This document shows positions 33,609-48,947 of a stretch of DNA of 64,000 bases, in pieces. Source of the stretch: a virus (lineage: Duplodnaviria; Caudoviricetes); IMG/VR virus record IMGVR_UViG_3300046522_000316, positions 32,001 through 96,000 of that record; one strand, 5' to 3'. The translations under genes and the position numbers were made by a program. A model generated the notes under the pieces. It had not been told where the DNA came from, searched no databases, and was given only the letters and a program-made list of their open reading frames with translations. How positions within the stretch are numbered: position 1 is the stretch's first letter; the number at the start of each line of letters is the position of its first letter.

Positions 33609-33660
33609 TGCACGTACACCCGAATATGTGGATATACAATTAAATTATGGTCTAGATAGC

Positions 33661-33700
33661 AAAAAACCCGCCTCCCCTTTTACAGAGAGACGGGTTTTTT
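33661..33700. terminator. Bidirectional-type terminator
   Basis: AAAAAACCCG...CGGGTTTTTT inverted repeat downstream of the H1-like gene. Confidence 0.75.
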
Positions 33701-33726: not shown

Positions 33727-35130
33727 TTAGGCGAAACGAGCTTTTGGAACGGCACCACCGGATTTCTTACCAGCTGCTGCTTTGGCCGGTGCGGCTTTGG
33801 CGCTAGGCGCTTTAGCTGCTGGCTTTTTCGCGGCGGCTTTTTTGGTTGGTGCTTTGGCTGCTTTGGCCGGGGCCTTAGCTGCTTTGGCTGGTGCCTTGGC
33901 GGATTTCTTTTCAGCGGCTTTGGCCGGAGCTTTTGCAGCGGCTTTCACCGGTGCTTTGGCTTCAGTTTCTTTCGCTTTGTTTTTCGAACCAGCCGGACGG
34001 CCACGCTTTTTCGCAGGAGCTTCAGCGGCTGGCGCTTTGGCTGCTGGCTTTTTAGCGGCGGCTTTTTTGGTTGGTGCTTTTGCTGCTGGCTTTGCAGCCG
34101 GTGCAGCTTCAGCTTTCGGTTTGTTTTTGGTGCCAGCCGGGCGACCGCGTTTCTTGGCTGCTGGTGCAGCTGGAGCGGCGGCAGTTTCTTTCGGCTTGTT
34201 TTTGGTGCCAGCTGGACGACCGCGTTTTTTCGCAGGTGCTGCTTCAGCGGCTGGCGCTTTTGCGGCTGGTGCTTTTTTCGCGGCTTTCGCGGCTGGTGCC
34301 GGTGCAGCAGTTTCTTTCGGCTTGTTCTTCACGCCAGCAGGACGACCGCGTTTCTTGGCCGGTGCAGCGGCGGCAGGAGCCGGGGCGTTCGAAGCGGCTG
34401 GTTTAGCAGCTGCTTTAGGCGCCTTTTTGGTCACGCCACCAGCGGCTTTTTTGGCTGCTGGTTTTTTGGTGCCGAAGTGTTTTGCAGCAATGCGTGCAAC
34501 GCCGTCTTTCGCAGCTTTCGCGCCGATATCAACCAGACGTTTGCCTGCGGACGAAATCGGTTTGGCTTTGAAATTGCTGATCAGGGACTTCAGGGAGAAT
34601 TTACCCTTCGGTTTGATTTTCGCCATTGCCTGACGGTGGCTGGCGGCAGCTTTGGTACGCTCGGCGGCGAGGTTTTTACGCTCGTTCGCGTAGCGGGATT
34701 TTTCGGCTTGACGCATCGCGGCGCGTTTGGCTGGAGCGACTTTCGCAGAACGGATCTTGCTCAGTGCTTTCTGGTGAGCGCTTTGCAGGCCCAGCGATTT
34801 TTTCCGGATTTGTTCACGGATTTGACGCTGTGCAGCAGTCACTTCACGCTTTTGACCAGCGGCGTGCGAACCAGCGGCGCGGTGCTTACGGCGTTTTTTC
34901 CACGCGGCAACCACTTTCTTCGCTTCGGCTTCGGTGGCACCGTGGCGCATGGCCTTGGTGAACACTTGGCGAGCGTGGAACTTCAGCTTTTCAGCAGGAG
35001 TCATGGTTTTGTAGCGTTGTTTGGCAAGCTTGTTCAGCTTGTTTTTGTTTTTCCGGCGGTAGACTTTGCCTTTCTTGGCCTCTTTAATGGCCTCGGCTCC
35101 CTTCCGCTTTTGTACGACTTTCATAACCAT
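33727..35130 (-). CDS. Histone H1-like Lys/Ala/Pro-rich protein with four AT-hook-like repeats
   Basis: 467 aa dominated by K/A/P; four KKRGRPAG(V/T/S)KNK repeats; PAKKAAAKK-type repeats. Confidence 0.8.
   Translation of the reverse strand: MVMKVVQKRKGAEAIKEAKKGKVYRRKNKNKLNKLAKQRYKTMTPAEKLKFHARQVFTKAMRHGATEAEAKKVVAAWKKRRKHRAAGSHAAGQKREVTAAQRQIREQIRKKSLGLQSAHQKALSKIRSAKVAPAKRAAMRQAEKSRYANERKNLAAERTKAAASHRQAMAKIKPKGKFSLKSLISNFKAKPISSAGKRLVDIGAKAAKDGVARIAAKHFGTKKPAAKKAAGGVTKKAPKAAAKPAASNAPAPAAAAPAKKRGRPAGVKNKPKETAAPAPAAKAAKKAPAAKAPAAEAAPAKKRGRPAGTKNKPKETAAAPAAPAAKKRGRPAGTKNKPKAEAAPAAKPAAKAPTKKAAAKKPAAKAPAAEAPAKKRGRPAGSKNKAKETEAKAPVKAAAKAPAKAAEKKSAKAPAKAAKAPAKAAKAPTKKAAAKKPAAKAPSAKAAPAKAAAGKKSGGAVPKARFA
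33965..34362 (-). repeat. Four imperfect coding repeats of AKKRGRPAGxKNKxK
   Basis: Plus-strand copies near 33970, 34115, 34188 and 34321. Confidence 0.85.
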
Positions 35131-35240
35131 CGTGCGAATCCTCGATTAAGGGTGTGTAGTTGGCTTAATCGTAGCGCCACGATGCGTACCAACTAATAAT
35201 AAATTAGTATTATCCGAATTAATTAAAAGTTCCGGTACGG

Positions 35241-36290
35241 TCAGGAAAAGCCGAGGGCGTTGCGGGCTTTATTCGCCTCCTTTAACGTCAATTTTATTTC
35301 CTTTTGATCCAGCCCTTCGGCCCCAAGGAATGCTTCCAAACCGAATAGCGGATCAATGTCGGCTCGTTCGATTTTAATCGTTTCAATATCCGTATTATCT
35401 ACGGATTTATTTCCCGTCCAATGAATGCCCCCGGTAATATTCGGATATTGCAGCATTAAATCGGCAGGCATTGGCACTTCAGGATTGAAATGCAGTTTAT
35501 AACGGATATTCGAATCGTGCTTCAGTTTCTTCAGATCATTGAGGTCATCAATAACCAGATTAATCAGCGTGAAGCCCGGTTTATTCTCGACGAATTTGTG
35601 TTCGAATTCAATCTTGTTATCGACCAACGTCGCCCGGAAATGAATGAACCCTTTAGGCAACGCTTCACCGAAATTCTTTTGGAACGGATTACCGCAATAA
35701 ACCGCACGCTTCGATTTCATGTACTGGTATTGATGGATATGACCGCTGATTGTGAAATCGTTTTTGTGCGCTTGCAGTTCGTGCTTCGTTTTCAATGCCC
35801 GGCCATTGTCACCAATCGCCCCGGTATATTCCACGTGTGCGATATTCAACGCGCCTTCTTTTTTCGACAACGATTTCAGGCACGGATAAGGCAGCAGGTT
35901 GACCGGCACGCCGTCGATTTCTACGCGCTCAGGTTTCAATACGATTTTGAGATTTTTGAATGCACGCGTCTTGCTCAAACGGTACATGAAATTCATCGAC
36001 ATTTTCTCGACGTTTTCAAAGTCGTGATTGCCTGCCACGTAAATGATGGTCAGCAGCTTGTCGTATTTGTAGAACAGGTTAAACAGTTTGGTGTAAGTGT
36101 CGAACGGCAGGTTCGGTGTATCGGTAATGTCGCCGGGAAACAGCACGTATTTAATGCCGTTATTCAGCGCGTATTGAAAAATCTTTTCACCCTCGGCCAG
36201 AATGCGATCATCGCCGTCCGAGAAATGTTTATTCAAACCGGTCAGGTGCCAGTCACTGGTGGAAATGCCTTCAAACGATGGGTTCGACAC
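35241..36290 (-). CDS. sbcD: SbcD/Mre11 metallophosphoesterase nuclease
   Basis: TSDWH, FPGDITD, AGNHD, SGHIH, YCGNPFQKNFGE motifs. Confidence 0.9.
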   Translation of the reverse strand: MSNPSFEGISTSDWHLTGLNKHFSDGDDRILAEGEKIFQYALNNGIKYVLFPGDITDTPNLPFDTYTKLFNLFYKYDKLLTIIYVAGNHDFENVEKMSMNFMYRLSKTRAFKNLKIVLKPERVEIDGVPVNLLPYPCLKSLSKKEGALNIAHVEYTGAIGDNGRALKTKHELQAHKNDFTISGHIHQYQYMKSKRAVYCGNPFQKNFGEALPKGFIHFRATLVDNKIEFEHKFVENKPGFTLINLVIDDLNDLKKLKHDSNIRYKLHFNPEVPMPADLMLQYPNITGGIHWTGNKSVDNTDIETIKIERADIDPLFGLEAFLGAEGLDQKEIKLTLKEANKARNALGFS

Positions 36291-43907: not shown

Positions 43908-45979
43908 TACGGTTCCAGATATTTTCGGATTTCATTGAGTTGGTCGGCGGCGCTGCCTTGGTGTTCAAAGCGCAGACGTTCTTCCAACATTTTCAAGGTC
44001 AGCGACCATTGTTCATTCGGTCTGTGTGCTTTACAGAATGCTTTGTAGCACATACCCATTGCGTAATAGCCGGGCGGGCCAGTGCGACCGGTAGGGCCGT
44101 CCTCGTTGGGGCCACACGGGCCGGTAATCCCTTCGGGGCCTGTCGTGATTTCAACCTGTTCGCAAAGCAGACCGTTTTCCAGTTCCGCCACCGGGCAATT
44201 GTCTTCGTGCAATTCGTTGCCGAAAGTACGATGTTCACAAATGCATTCGGTAACAGGCACGCCGAGTTCATCAGCCAGTTCACGGCTCATGAAAACAGTC
44301 TCCGGCGTCAGAGTCGATTCGAGAATTGCATCGCGCAATTTGTCGATCTTGACCGTTGCAACTTCTGCGATTTCGTCCAATGCAGCTTCTGCGGCCTGCA
44401 TCAGCAGCGAGATATCACCGGATGTTGAGACAGATCCGATTTTTTCTTCGCCGTGATAAACAGCTGCTTCGTCCTCGACTTCTTCCGCACTTTCTACCGT
44501 GTCGGCACAGCCTGTGAGGAACAACCAATCCACACCATCGACCGATGTAACTTCTGCAACGTTGGTCAACGTCAGAACTTCAACGATGTGTTTTTCATCG
44601 TCCGGATGCAGATTGAATTTCCGGATGAAAACACTGACCTTCACACCACCGTCGAGGAAGTCGGTGATATCTTTCGGGTTGAGACTTTCGATCATCGCGT
44701 AACTGATCAGCGGAACATCGCGATCCGATTTCGGTTTGAACGGTTTGTATTCTTTGCCCTGATAACCAGTTTTCACCGGGAAGGTTTTCGGCGGGAAAGT
44801 CCCGGCCTTCGGGCTGGCGCTGACGGCGGTCTTCTGCGCGTACTGCACGTTCGAAGTGTGTGGCCCTTTCACGATGCTGTCGGGATTGCTCACGTCGTAA
44901 TCGAAATCGACCAGATAACGCGTCACATCGCTGTGATGAATTCGCGTTGTTTCCACGATATCGAAAAGGCGGTAAGGCTCACGGATATTTTCGCAATATT
45001 CGTCCATGATTGCGATTGCATCACTTGGGTCAGTGGTACGGTGCGCAATGTACATGGAACCCGGCACATATTCCAACGTCGGGTCGATAAACTCGGTGCC
45101 ATCCCAACCCATCAACACGCCGCTGCTCGCCACGTCTTCAAAGATTTCCAAGAAACGATCTTTGTCGATGAAATGTTTTTCGCTGATTTCTGCGTACAGC
45201 GAATCACTGGTGAATGCGCCGCGATAGTTCAGCATCCGTGCGCGCAGATCGTCAGAGAAAAGTGTCGGCAAATTGCGGATCTTTTCTGCGTGTGCCAGCG
45301 CCGCTTCGTGATCCTCGGCCAGCGTTTTGTTGTGGTATTCCACCAGCGTTTCCGGAACAGCTTTTTCCAGAACCTGAATCAGGCGCGCAGCCAGATCATC
45401 GTCGGATTCTTCCACAACAGGTTCCGTGATTTCTTGCGCGATTTCTGCAACTGCTTCGACAACGGTTTCAATCGTTTCGTTGAGTAGCGAATAAACCGTG
45501 AGGTTTTTACTCAACAGGCCGTCAGTAACCAGCTTGCGCAGCGGGTTGATCAGCGACGTTCCTTTTGCGAGGCCAAAGTTTTGTGCGATAACGGCGGCGG
45601 TGCGAGGCACACCATCTGCCATGTATTCCGCGATCATTTCAGGCGTGACTTTCATGGCCGTTCCATCGAGTGTTTCATTCGAAGTTTCCGGCACCGACTC
45701 CACAACTGGCACCGGGTCAGGTTTGGTTTCTACCACAGGCGCCAACGCGGCTTCCGCCTGTTGACGTTCCTGTTGACGCTTTTTGAATTCATCGGAAATG
45801 GACAGGCGATTATTTTCCGTCGCCTGCACATAACCCGCCTGTTTCAGACGCTCAAGTGCCCGCGTCAATTGGCTGTGATGCTTTCGCAGTTCATCCCCGT
45901 AATAAGTCAGGGTGCGTCCTTGGTCATTCTTGATTGCGTACAGCAGTTCTACCTCAATCGCGGACAGGTCTGTCATCAC
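43907..45979 (-). CDS. Multi-domain protein with winged-helix domains, acidic linkers and a short collagen-like GXY run
   Basis: N-terminal MarR-like wHTH (LTRALERLKQAGYV), second wHTH (TAAVIAQNFGL...LRKLVTDGLL), GPEGITGPCGP..GPTGRTGPPG. Confidence 0.55.
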   Translation of the reverse strand: MMTDLSAIEVELLYAIKNDQGRTLTYYGDELRKHHSQLTRALERLKQAGYVQATENNRLSISDEFKKRQQERQQAEAALAPVVETKPDPVPVVESVPETSNETLDGTAMKVTPEMIAEYMADGVPRTAAVIAQNFGLAKGTSLINPLRKLVTDGLLSKNLTVYSLLNETIETVVEAVAEIAQEITEPVVEESDDDLAARLIQVLEKAVPETLVEYHNKTLAEDHEAALAHAEKIRNLPTLFSDDLRARMLNYRGAFTSDSLYAEISEKHFIDKDRFLEIFEDVASSGVLMGWDGTEFIDPTLEYVPGSMYIAHRTTDPSDAIAIMDEYCENIREPYRLFDIVETTRIHHSDVTRYLVDFDYDVSNPDSIVKGPHTSNVQYAQKTAVSASPKAGTFPPKTFPVKTGYQGKEYKPFKPKSDRDVPLISYAMIESLNPKDITDFLDGGVKVSVFIRKFNLHPDDEKHIVEVLTLTNVAEVTSVDGVDWLFLTGCADTVESAEEVEDEAAVYHGEEKIGSVSTSGDISLLMQAAEAALDEIAEVATVKIDKLRDAILESTLTPETVFMSRELADELGVPVTECICEHRTFGNELHEDNCPVAELENGLLCEQVEITTGPEGITGPCGPNEDGPTGRTGPPGYYAMGMCYKAFCKAHRPNEQWSLTLKMLEERLRFEHQGSAADQLNEIRKYLEP

Positions 45980-47166
45980 TCTTTCTCGGCTAAAAACGCA
46001 CCAACACTGGAATAGAACACGACCGTTTCATCAAGGGTCGCGGTGTTCAGTTTGAGTTCGATTTCACACAGCAAATTTTGCAGTTGGATCAGACTTTTGA
46101 TTCCAGTCTTGACCTTTTCTTTTTTCGCCAGCGCATCGAACAGCTTGCCGTTATACGGCGTGTACTTGTTCATGCCGGTATGCTCGCCAATTCGATATTC
46201 GATCAGCCAGCGGACTTTGTTCAACAGCCCGCGCACACCGCCACAGATTTTGGCAGCTTGCACAACCTTGACATAATCTTTCTGGAAAACTGCCGCAAGG
46301 AAATGCGCAGAAGTTTCGTCCAGATCCGCTTCGATATCCACGAACGACGCGAGGTCGTCAGGATTGTATTTCTTGCCCGAAGCGAGGATAGAAAGAAAAA
46401 TATCCAGCTTCGACACTGCTTCACGCAAAGAGCCGTTACTGGATTCTGCAATTGTGGTCAGGGCCTTTTTCGCTTCCTTCTTGATCGTGTGACCTTCGGC
46501 TTCCGCGATCACAGACATGCGATCAACCAGCGTTGGAATGTCGATTTGCTTCAGACGGAAATGCGTGCAGCGACTGACCAAAGTTTTGTGTACTGCTTCC
46601 GGGTTCGTCGTGCAGAGAATCCAGATTGTGTTCGGTGGTGGATTTTCAGTTGCGGTCAACAACGCTTTTTCAGACGGGCCGCGCAGGGCGTGAACTTCGT
46701 CGAGAATGAAAACGCGTTTGCGGGTGTTCGGCGCGTTGTTCGCGGCGGCGATCAGATTACGGATGCTGGCAATGGAACCATCGACCGCGCAATCGTAATA
46801 GGAAACGTCCGGGTGTTTCTTGAACTGGCAGCTGTAGCACTTGCCGCACAGGTTCAGTTTTTCGCAGTTCACTTGCCGACTGAAGATCAGGGCGAACGTG
46901 GTTTTGCCGCAACCGTAATGCCCGGAGAACATCAACGACGACGGAACTTTTTGACGCTTGAACATGCCTTCGATTGCCGACGTTGCATGATCCTGACCAA
47001 CCACATCTGCCAGTTTGCGCGGGCGATATTCGTTTGCCAGTTGCGAAGTTTCCAGCGTCAGTTTCTCGCCGGATTTTTCACTGGCTTTTTTCTTCGCCTT
47101 TTTCACATTGGCTTCGGTATCAGATTTGAACGTCTTGACTTTCTTTTTTACTTTATCGGTTGCCAT
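45976..47166 (-). CDS. dnaX: DNA polymerase III gamma/tau-type clamp loader subunit
   Basis: YRPRKLADVVGQ, GHYGCGKTT, C..CGKC.SC Zn module, LDEVH, SRC motif. Confidence 0.92.
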   Translation of the reverse strand: MATDKVKKKVKTFKSDTEANVKKAKKKASEKSGEKLTLETSQLANEYRPRKLADVVGQDHATSAIEGMFKRQKVPSSLMFSGHYGCGKTTFALIFSRQVNCEKLNLCGKCYSCQFKKHPDVSYYDCAVDGSIASIRNLIAAANNAPNTRKRVFILDEVHALRGPSEKALLTATENPPPNTIWILCTTNPEAVHKTLVSRCTHFRLKQIDIPTLVDRMSVIAEAEGHTIKKEAKKALTTIAESSNGSLREAVSKLDIFLSILASGKKYNPDDLASFVDIEADLDETSAHFLAAVFQKDYVKVVQAAKICGGVRGLLNKVRWLIEYRIGEHTGMNKYTPYNGKLFDALAKKEKVKTGIKSLIQLQNLLCEIELKLNTATLDETVVFYSSVGAFLAEKE

Positions 47167-47196: not shown

Positions 47197-47206
47197 TATT
47201 TACAGT
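47197..47206 (-). promoter_or_regulatory. ACTGTAAATA motif, putative phage promoter
   Basis: ~31 nt upstream of the clamp loader start, overlapping the stop of the previous gene. Confidence 0.6.
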
Positions 47207-47472
47207 ATGGTGGCGTTAAGCTCTTTCTTCGCTGCGTAGATACGCACGGCTTTGCGTGCCTCGGCCTCAGATGCCCCCGCATCAATTGCCCGGCGATAAA
47301 TCTCACGCTCCATACGGCGCTGGCTACGGCTTTTGTGTGGCCGCTTGGCCCGTGGCTTTTTCACAGGCTTTTTCGGTTGCACCATGTAAGCCAACAAGCC
47401 GATGGAAAGCCCGATACCAACAGCCCAATAAAAAACATTGATCCAGTCGTCAACTGTCATGAGTATTTCCAT
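47200..47472 (-). CDS. Small single-pass membrane protein with basic cytoplasmic tail
   Basis: Hydrophobic WINVFYWAVGIGLSIGLLAYMV followed by a K/R-rich segment and RAIDAGASEAEARKAV. Confidence 0.7.
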   Translation of the reverse strand: MEILMTVDDWINVFYWAVGIGLSIGLLAYMVQPKKPVKKPRAKRPHKSRSQRRMEREIYRRAIDAGASEAEARKAVRIYAAKKELNATIL

Positions 47473-47696
47473 CGCCCAAGCATGATTCGCACAGGATCAA
47501 TATTCCCGTACACAAAAACAGAATGCTTGCGATCATGCGTGCTGTTGATTACGAGCCGGTTATAGGCCCACGCATTTTGTGCCAATGGATCAGCGAGTGG
47601 TAAGGTGCGCACCAATACCTGCGGCGCACCTACCAATACTTCTCGCCATTCACCGTCAGCAGGCCCACCAAAAAATAAACAATTTTCGGTTTCCAT
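47457..47696 (-). CDS. Hypothetical protein
   Basis: FFGGPADG start, common in small phage ORFs. Confidence 0.55.
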   Translation of the reverse strand: METENCLFFGGPADGEWREVLVGAPQVLVRTLPLADPLAQNAWAYNRLVINSTHDRKHSVFVYGNIDPVRIMLGRWKYS

Positions 47697-47705
47697 GCTT
47701 AACCT

Positions 47706-48947
47706 TTATTCGGCAATAGCTGCCTTCAGAGTTTTATCCAGAAGTTTCTGAACAGTTTTCGGAATGGATTTGCCGGTCAGAGAAAGCGCGAAGGCCTCGG
47801 CAAACATTTCTTGCACGTTGGTGCCTGCGTATTCGCCCATCAGCGCAGTTACCGAATCGGTGTTGGAGAACGAAGCCGAAGTCGGCCAGATTTCCGCCAG
47901 CACTTTGCTGTTTTGGTTCAGCAAAACGTTCGCGTCTTCCGGCGTCATTTTGTGAACTTTCTTCAGGTACGAAAGCGCTTCTTTGAACAGGGCCAGTTCG
48001 TCTTCTTCGAGGTCGCGTTGGAATTCGCGAATGCTCATTTGAGAATTGACCAGCGACTGACACAACGATTCCATGTCCGATTTCTTGGCCTTGGAAACTT
48101 TAGTCATCGTGTTGTACTGTTCCAGCCACAGCGCACGGATTTTTTCAGGCACGAAGCGATACCACACAGCGTGGCCGATTTCGTGAATGAAAATGTACTG
48201 GTTGTAGATTTGATCTTCCACGATTTTCGGGAAGAGTTTAATCAGGTCAACCGCTTCGCCGGTCTTGAAGCTGACCGAGTAGGTGCCCGCCCACTTGCCT
48301 TTCGGATTGTGAACTTCGATACGGCTGATCGGGAAAACTTTTTCCAGATCGAGGTCAACGATTTTCTTGTGCGCTTTTTTCACACCGATGCGGATCGCTT
48401 CTTTCTCGGCGTCGGAACACTTGCGGTAGAAGTGCATCGGGCCAATCGGCGTGTCGATTTCGCCAAGGTGCGGCATGATTTCCACACCGAAAACTTTACC
48501 CGGCTTCGGATCTTTGCCGAGGTTGGCAATCAGCGTGTTCGCGTCGTATTCGATGGCGACCGGCTCATTGGTATTCAGCGATTCTTCCAGATACGCAGTG
48601 TTGCGTTTCGGGCTGTGCGCGAATGCCAGTTTATTTTTCTTGCCGATTTGGACAATGATGTAGTCGTCCTGTTCGACCGGCAGTTGGACTTTGGCGTCGG
48701 CTGCTGCCACTTCGGTTTTCTTTTTCTTTTTCACCTTGCCGTCGCCAGCTTTGGTGCCGCTCACGTCACGACCGAGGTCTTTCATTTTCGGCTTGAGGTC
48801 GAGGCCTTCCGACTTCACCAAACCTTTTTTCTTTTTCTTTTTCGGCGCGTCGTCTTCTACAACGACTTTCTTTTTCTTTTTCGGTGCAACGTCTTCGCTG
48901 CTACTCTTCTTCTTTTTCTTCTTTTTCTTCAGGTCATCATCAGCCAT
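47706..48947 (-). CDS. Zincin-type metallopeptidase with poly-Lys N-terminus
   Basis: FIHEIGHAVW (HExxH) plus EYAGTNVQEMFAEAF third-ligand motif; K8, K5, K6 and K5 tracts in the N-terminal ~80 aa. Confidence 0.75.
   Translation of the reverse strand: MADDDLKKKKKKKKSSSEDVAPKKKKKVVVEDDAPKKKKKKGLVKSEGLDLKPKMKDLGRDVSGTKAGDGKVKKKKKTEVAAADAKVQLPVEQDDYIIVQIGKKNKLAFAHSPKRNTAYLEESLNTNEPVAIEYDANTLIANLGKDPKPGKVFGVEIMPHLGEIDTPIGPMHFYRKCSDAEKEAIRIGVKKAHKKIVDLDLEKVFPISRIEVHNPKGKWAGTYSVSFKTGEAVDLIKLFPKIVEDQIYNQYIFIHEIGHAVWYRFVPEKIRALWLEQYNTMTKVSKAKKSDMESLCQSLVNSQMSIREFQRDLEEDELALFKEALSYLKKVHKMTPEDANVLLNQNSKVLAEIWPTSASFSNTDSVTALMGEYAGTNVQEMFAEAFALSLTGKSIPKTVQKLLDKTLKAAIAE

Follow-up and report, generated by a model that had tools for sequence, protein, structure and literature searches.

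In eukaryotes, a two-helix module of ~40 residues (LEM, HeH or SAP), carried on a membrane-anchored protein, links chromatin to the inner nuclear membrane. HeH and SAP modules make this link directly, and LEM modules make it through the DNA-bridging protein BAF. The bacterial protein PhaF joins an N-terminal helical (phasin) domain to an H1-like tail. In phage phi29, replication is anchored by the membrane proteins p16.7 and p1, and p6 serves as an abundant histone-like protein that coats the DNA (PMC4974454). The p16.7 protein is small; its N-terminus forms a membrane helix, and its C-terminal domain lies in the cytoplasm, where it recruits the terminal protein and replicating phage DNA to the membrane (PMC4974454).

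The DNA analysed in the current study (the window, 64,000 nucleotides) was found by DNA and protein searches to be part of an uncultured jumbo phage related to the Pseudomonas phages HRDY3 (PQ015379, 314 kb) and Lu11 (NC_017972, 281 kb). DNA nearly identical to the window was found in rhizosphere and soil metagenomes; HRDY3 was not mentioned in any paper found by the literature search. On the minus strand of the window, DNA-handling genes form a block consisting of a zincin peptidase gene, a 79-aa gene, a small ORF, a clamp loader gene, a 690-aa gene and an SbcC-like gene, and ~12 kb beyond this block lie the genes of an SbcD-like nuclease and then of an H1-like protein (Table 1). The small ORF and the H1-like ORF encode proteins of different architecture that share one homologous alpha-hairpin.

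Table 1. Positions of the features discussed in the text (window coordinates unless a contig is named)
Feature	Position	Strand	Evidence or remark
H1-like / AT-hook protein gene, 467 aa, pI 11.6, net charge +113	33727..35130	-	
N-domain helical arm (residues 88-177) and second motif (184-199) of the H1-like protein	34486-35130	-	
Hairpin copy of the H1-like protein: helix 45-62, turn H-G-A-T, helix 67-85	34876..34998	-	AlphaFold model
Homologous core of the H1-like hairpin, residues 52-84	34879-34977	-	hhalign
SbcD-like nuclease gene	35241..36290		precedes the H1-like gene
Clamp-loader gene (DNA pol III gamma/tau/delta'-like AAA+)	45976..47166	-	Pfam DNA_pol3_delta2, 2.4e-26; phrog_5846, 6.5e-93
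Promoter-type motif CTGTAAATA	47197..47205	-	overlaps last sense codon (CTG, Leu) and stop of the small gene
CTGTAAATA, nine other sites	8670, 12056, 16288, 18759, 26695, 36587, 41485, 53159 (-); 62677 (+)	- and +	
Small bitopic membrane protein gene, 86 aa, start corrected	47200..47460	-	all eight other aligned sequences start MT...
C-terminal alpha-hairpin: helix 45-60, turn A-G-A-S, helix 65-85	47203..47328	-	AlphaFold, pLDDT 84-93
Hairpin core homologous to the H1-like protein, residues 50-82	47215-47313	-	hhalign, E 1.4e-8
Polycationic Lys/Pro/Arg linker, residues 28-44	47329..47379	-	without secondary structure, pLDDT ~66-77
Membrane helix, ~residues 6-27	47380..47445	-	AlphaFold helix 3-26; uncharged 19-residue stretch
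79-aa gene, GGPxDG-type small protein, upstream of the small membrane-protein gene	47457..47696	-	ORF; HRDY3 homologue P0004
Zincin peptidase gene with poly-Lys tracts	47706..48947	-	phrog_17197, E 6e-119; HEIGH motif
Variable small-gene slot	window 47200-47700; L001 3361-4123; L031 834-1599; L033 2703-2909; L002 5201-5509		

The initial annotation had drawn the small ORF from an ATG at 47472 to 47200. The ORF is present, but this ATG is not its start and lies four codons upstream of the true one. Since all eight sequences aligned with it, seven from the databases and the orthologue of HRDY3, begin at the second Met, the gene was assigned the shorter extent given in table 1. The corrected ATG overlaps the stop codon TGA of the 79-aa gene in the sequence ATGA, and the two genes are thus translationally coupled.

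The description of one transmembrane helix and a basic linker ahead of the motif was borne out for the small ORF. An AlphaFold2 model built with family alignments showed a helix at residues 3-26, disorder at residues 27-44, and then the hairpin. In the window protein the charge of the N-flank of the membrane helix is -2, while the next 20 residues carry +9, and the cytoplasmic part as a whole has a net charge of +13 and a pI of 11.3. All 13 small proteins of the family (82-106 aa) show such a distribution, with N-flank charges of -2 to +1 and a net charge of +8 to +16 in the C-part. According to the positive-inside rule this indicates an N-out/C-in orientation with a cytoplasmic hairpin, and supports a putative role as a membrane anchor whose C-terminus lies in the cytoplasm. 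The periplasm is the predicted location of the short acidic N-flank (MTVDD), and the Lys/Pro/Arg linker is predicted to be disordered and cytoplasmic. The HRDY3 orthologue (XDJ15172, 82 aa) is syntenic and has the same layout.

Conservation is unevenly distributed in these proteins. Mean pairwise identity among the 13 family members is 63% for the hairpin, compared with 33% for the poorly conserved membrane helix and linker. The sequence of the membrane helix drifts freely, suggesting that it is merely an anchor and that selection acts on the hairpin.

The H1-like protein consists of a basic helical N-domain (residues 1-215, net charge +51) followed by a tail rich in Ala, Lys and Pro (99, 61 and 35, respectively, in 252 residues). 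The tail contains four AT-hook-type repeats, KKRGRPAG.KNK, at residues 259, 301, 326 and 374, and thus has both the R-G-R-P cores with basic flanks of an AT-hook protein and the Lys/Ala/Pro-rich composition of an H1-like tail. Its homologue P0026 carries Pfam AT_hook (PF02178), and at E <= 1 no Pfam family, phasin and H1 included, matched the protein of the window. Members of the family range from 340 to 475 aa, and the HRDY3 member is XDJ15192. It is taken to be an abundant-looking DNA-coating protein.

Across 11 H1-like homologues, with identities down to 39%, the segment AMRHGATEAEA (A60-A70) within the hairpin is invariant, and it is the longest invariant run in the N-domain. The most constrained element of the protein is thus the hairpin and not the putative DNA-binding tail. 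Beyond the hairpin, the model contains a long antiparallel helix pair (residues 90-127 and 133-171, pLDDT ~95). A second short invariant motif, I-S-N-[FY]-x-x-x-P-[IL]-S-x-x-G-K-R-L, was observed at residues 184-199.

The SbcD-like gene always precedes the H1-like gene, with a leader of ~100 bp between them. In the window this leader (35131-35240, minus strand) is AT-rich, ~110 bp long and does not contain the CTGTAAATA word. Just 3' of the stop codon of the H1-like gene, a stem-loop, CCCGTCTC...GAGGCGGG, followed by a T-run was read by eye (33655-33700, minus strand); it looks like an intrinsic terminator, and the H1-like gene looks monocistronic.

Both peptides quoted in the initial annotation are present in the window, REIYRRAIDAGASEAEARKAV in the small ORF at 47245-47307 and RQVFTKAMRHGATEAEAKKVV in the H1-like ORF at 34909-34971 (both on the minus strand), each one base away from the coordinates first given. 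BLASTP of the two window proteins, as a single pair, yielded 10/21 identities and 17/21 positives (E 5e-4). Given the thousands of ORF pairs per window, such a pairwise match is marginal and not decisive for sequence relatedness.

At the family level the match was much stronger. When the small-protein family (9 sequences) was aligned with the N-termini of the H1-like family (11 sequences) by hhalign, a probability of 95.5% and an E-value of 1.4e-8 were obtained over 33 columns. A non-circular comparison was provided by an HMM made from H1-like segments only, with no small protein in its training set. The HRDY3 small protein, whose motif, AIRHGATEAEARK, differs little from the H1-like block, obtained 43.3 bits with this HMM (E remaining at 3e-6 with Z = 1.84e9), and among 1135 six-frame fragments of the window the sole cross match of the HMM was the small ORF (16.6 bits). 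These family comparisons confirm that the match is real homology and that it involves a predicted hairpin module of ~33-40 residues.

The shared unit is longer than the 21 residues first noticed, with ~33 aligned residues lying within a helix-turn-helix hairpin of ~40 residues. The proposal of a shared mini-domain was upheld, as the two segments are homologous, form the same alpha-hairpin in both AlphaFold models (helix, 4-residue turn, helix, pLDDT ~90) and are under strong constraint at the protein level. The DNA of the two segments in the window has an identity of only 39%, and of the 10 residues that agree, 8 are encoded by different codons, indicating that the similarity is old and has been maintained in the protein. 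A DNA-level element or a recent duplication was ruled out by the same nucleotide identity.

The search with a motif HMM that the initial annotation had proposed was carried out with a joint 49-column profile against 1.84 billion representative proteins. It returned 18 proteins, 16 of which have one of two architectures: either the H1-like type of 340-475 aa or the type of 82-106 aa, in which a membrane helix and a basic linker precede the hairpin. The remaining two, P0032 and the TPR-like P0037, are repeat proteins that matched part of the profile (columns 13-27 only in P0037) and were regarded as false positives. This 49-column profile (A3), with the pattern R-x-[IV]-[YF]-x-[KR]-A-[IMV]-x-x-G-A-[ST]-x-x-E-A-x-K-x-V-x-x-[YW], scored the small protein of the window (P0007) at 75 bits and the H1-like homologues at 64-85 bits.

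Searches against known families gave no meaningful match. In Pfam, neither the two whole proteins nor 15 motif segments matched anything better than Ribosomal_S10 (E 0.1) or, at E 0.08 or more, ATR1_N, AbiEi_4 and SinI. The motif profile found one chance match among PDB chain sequences (the ParD-like 5ceg, E 7.3), and Foldseek found nothing in the PDB at E <= 0.001 for either model. Among 48,161 chains searched with VIA-align, the best Z was 7.2 for the hairpin and 10.7 for the H1 N-domain (phasin PhaP), both within the chance range for helical models. With ESM Atlas features, the highest score obtained for the small protein was 0.77, and nothing usable was found for the H1-like domain. Within the reach of these searches the module is undescribed in Pfam, PHROGs and the PDB, and is restricted to Lu11/HRDY3-like jumbo phages.

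Several specific assignments were considered and rejected. The family phrog_38593 matched 7 motif segments (best E 2.9e-4) and was treated as non-specific, because its profile also matches in 9 of 14 control genomes; it is absent from HRDY3, Lu11, G001 and G002, and marginal (E 0.08) in G003. The helix-hairpin-helix (HhH) pattern is h-x-x-h-x-G-h-G-x-x-x-A-x-x-h-h; compared with it by eye, the first helix of the motif does not keep the register and the turn is followed by acidic residues, and no HhH family was found in Pfam at E <= 10 for any of the 15 segments. For ribbon-helix-helix (RHH) proteins of the CopG/Arc/MetJ type, 5ceg was the only match, and no strand precedes the hairpin in either AlphaFold model. 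SAP and LEM gave no Pfam match at E <= 10. TPR or Sel1-like repeats were discarded since there is a single hairpin and no TPR family appeared in the Pfam scans.

Apart from Lu11, all relatives examined have the small gene as the direct upstream neighbour of the clamp loader gene, an order seen in the window, HRDY3, L005 (= G001, a 308-kb contig), L012 (a 320-kb contig), L006, L013 and G002. In every genome that has the small protein and is covered by enough sequence (the window, HRDY3, G001, G002 and the L017/L018 contig), the H1-like gene is located ~12 kb from the small gene. G001 and G002, which are complete, each have two copies of the module and no more, ~12 kb apart. The protein encoded in this slot in G003 has 68 aa; it too consists of a membrane helix, a basic linker and a hairpin, the last of these being degenerate (R-N-V-W-R-N-A-R-I-H-G...) and not detected by the HMM. 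In Lu11 the H1-like gene occurs without the small protein, indicating that the H1-like protein does not need its small counterpart.

Across the relatives, the slot between the zincin peptidase and clamp loader genes was observed to be a variable cassette of small genes, in which a GGPxDG-type protein (~80-90 aa), a lipoprotein (~90-100 aa, motif C-[IV]-D-G-[IV]-V-Y-[IL]-R) and the membrane-hairpin protein occur in differing combinations. A small lipoprotein gene adjoins the small membrane-protein gene in HRDY3, G002 and other relatives; it is absent from the slot of the window and is the only gene in that of Lu11. The zincin peptidase gene itself occupies the equivalent position in HRDY3, Lu11 and G003, and its product has an N-terminal extension of ~90 residues with several poly-Lys tracts.

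The CTGTAAATA word at the end of the small gene is placed 31 bp before the ATG of the clamp loader gene. The window contains 10 exact copies of this word, compared with 0.14 expected. In the corresponding gap of Lu11 it is annotated as a 'putative middle/late promoter', and it is conserved in HRDY3 and L005. The overlap of this word with the last codon and stop explains why the C-terminal Leu is invariant in the closest homologues (alignment A1). A different frame runs through this word in L005 and L012 and yields ...DTVNNG. The position of the word suggests that the small gene ends one transcription unit and that the clamp loader gene has its own putative promoter, which weakens any functional inference from the adjacency of the two genes. 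Their synteny may also only reflect the collinearity of closely related genomes.

With regard to function, it is possible, and tentatively preferred here, that the small protein is a membrane anchor for H1-coated, replicating phage DNA. If the hairpin binds the same ligand in both proteins, the small protein would bring that ligand to the membrane. The ligand could be a second copy of the hairpin, the two forming a four-helix bundle, or a different site on the H1-like protein, or else a partner from phage or host shared by both proteins. The Lys/Pro/Arg linker and the hairpin would then retain the H1-coated replicating DNA (or the shared partner) on the cytoplasmic side of the inner membrane. 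Anchoring could occur by pairing of hairpins or by docking onto the H1-like protein, helped by the polycationic linker, for which p16.7 and p1 of phi29 would be a precedent. The location of the small gene within a replication and repair block (zincin, clamp loader, SbcC/SbcD), with the clamp loader gene next to it in 7 relatives, counts for the anchor.

A more specific form of this proposal, a two-part tether between chromatin and membrane in which an H1 lattice is joined by hairpin-hairpin pairing and the replicating nucleoid is fixed beside the replisome, is doubtful. Several observations also count against the anchor itself. The residues that both families have kept (G-A-S/T-E-A-E-A) are small or acidic and are not the basic or polar set expected for DNA contact, which argues somewhat against the motif itself being a DNA-contacting surface; its glutamates may instead form salt bridges to the arginines of helix 1. 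The hairpin has no meaningful match to a known DNA-binding or dimerisation family. The retention of the H1-like protein in Lu11, whose slot holds only the lipoprotein, shows that the pairing of the two proteins is dispensable. Moreover, the motif of the small proteins varies before the Gly (D-A, R-H, R-R) and that of the H1-like proteins is invariant, so that no co-variation suggests direct contact between the hairpins. Prediction of a complex between the H1-like N-domain (1-215) and residues 38-86 of the small protein gave a score of 0.01, which counts neither for nor against binding.

The same acidic and small conserved face would fit a protein-protein epitope better than a DNA contact, as in an alternative in which the small protein is a membrane-anchored decoy or regulator. 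Here the hairpin would be a docking epitope for a third factor acting on the H1-like protein, such as a protease (for example the adjacent poly-Lys zincin), a chaperone, a modifying enzyme or a host defence sensor, and its display at the membrane would titrate, localise or time this factor without touching DNA or the H1-like protein. The apparent transcription unit that the small gene forms with the zincin peptidase gene, and its translational coupling to the 79-aa gene, agree with this, as does its dispensability in Lu11, since accessory regulators are often dispensable. However, no candidate for the third factor was found, nothing links the zincin to the motif, and in Lu11, which has no small protein, the peptidase and the H1-like protein are both retained. 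Such a role is considered unlikely.

Direct binding of nucleic acid by the hairpin is likewise improbable, even though both of its contexts are extremely basic, as seen in the charges of the cytoplasmic part and of the H1 N-domain. According to this explanation, the basic hairpin and its polycationic flank would be a small non-specific DNA- or RNA-binding unit in which the N-terminus of helix 2 and the Ser/Thr contact phosphates as in HhH/RHH turns, and DNA would be pinned to the membrane independently of H1. The G-A-S/T turn followed by a helix N-terminus does resemble phosphate-binding turns, and the weakest matches obtained were to ParD/CopG RHH helices (E 7.3) and to phrog_16411, 'HTH DNA binding protein' (E 0.042). 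These matches are at chance level, however, and Pfam gave no HhH, RHH, SAP or LEM at E <= 10. Furthermore, no beta-strand lies ahead of the hairpin in either model, and two conserved glutamates are located exactly at the N-terminus of helix 2, where phosphate would bind.

The small size, single membrane pass and highly charged C-terminus of the protein are also found in many holins and exclusion proteins. A membrane process unrelated to DNA (a holin/antiholin-like timer, superinfection exclusion or a spanin-like function), with the hairpin as a reused folding unit, could therefore be envisaged, and the lipoprotein gene adjacent in HRDY3, G002 and other relatives would be in line with it. Only a weak match to a PHROG holin was found (phrog_1350, E 0.52); it is not significant, and the endolysin gene is ~9 kb away in HRDY3 coordinates, near the SbcD and H1-like genes. 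That precisely the block shared with the H1-like protein is strongly conserved speaks for a common function, and this explanation is very unlikely.

Membership of the holins was rejected on the same E-value and on the location of the endolysin elsewhere in HRDY3 and Lu11. A two-component spanin (lipoprotein plus membrane protein) was also discarded, as the two genes occur independently (no lipoprotein in the window, no small protein in Lu11) and the predicted C-in topology and net charge of +13 do not suit the periplasmic domain of an i-spanin.

A chance or compositional similarity of two Ala/Glu/Lys-rich helices without common ancestry is so remote as to be effectively refuted by the sequence comparisons, for although the pairwise E-value of 5e-4 would not survive correction for all ORF pairs in the window and the profile also caught the unrelated P0032 and P0037, the hhalign E-value (1.4e-8) and the HRDY3 score with the H1-only HMM (43.3 bits) stand against it, and no other match was found among 1.84e9 representatives.

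The hairpin is a new protein module, and its function probably belongs to a known type of system, in which phage DNA is anchored to the membrane. Its presence on both a DNA-coating protein and a membrane anchor would provide a testable handle on the organisation of 300 kb of DNA in jumbo phages that do not form a nucleus. Experiments are feasible in HRDY3, a phage that grows on Pseudomonas and has both genes (XDJ15172 and XDJ15192). Should the tether proposal prove wrong, an undescribed protein module has still been defined and the start of the small gene has been corrected.

Compared with p16.7 of phi29, the small protein is similar in size, in topology (an N-terminal helix and a cytoplasmic C-domain are predicted) and in its location among replication genes, and both phages also make a histone-like DNA-coating protein, p6 in phi29 and the H1-like protein here. 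In contrast, no sequence similarity was found, the PDB profile search having given a chance match only, and p16.7 and p6 share no module, whereas the putative anchor and the DNA-coating protein of the present phage share one. The Foldseek list was headed, at chance level (E above 1, TM ~0.3), by homeodomain chains. The homeodomain is the fold class of the C-terminal domain of p16.7 (p16.7C).

The H1-like partner resembles AlgP and PhaF of Pseudomonas, HMGA and CarD in its Ala/Lys/Pro tail and four R-G-R-P cores. As in PhaF, an H1-like tail follows a helical domain at the N-terminus, the structural match to PhaP (Z 10.7) being within noise. The partner differs from the bacterial H1-like proteins in that its N-domain is extremely basic (net +51) and carries the hairpin, which was found in no bacterial protein in the joint HMM search of 1.84 billion representatives.

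For residues 40-86 of the small protein, the best structural neighbours were the C-domain of P5C reductase and the dimerisation domains of EF-Ts and of the rabies virus P protein. These are antiparallel hairpins that pair into helical bundles, and their identity to the small-protein hairpin is 7-18%. Their Z values of 5.1-7.2 (rmsd 1.9-4.7 A over 45-48 residues) are in the chance range for helical models and show only that a common hairpin shape is predicted.

Any likeness to LEM, HeH and SAP would be functional only, as the turn is a tight one of 4 residues instead of the long LEM/HeH loop, and lineage and cell biology are unrelated. If the two-part tether is true, it would be a bacterial-virus counterpart of the LEM/HeH tethers of the nuclear envelope, with a mechanism unlike that of p16.7 in phi29.
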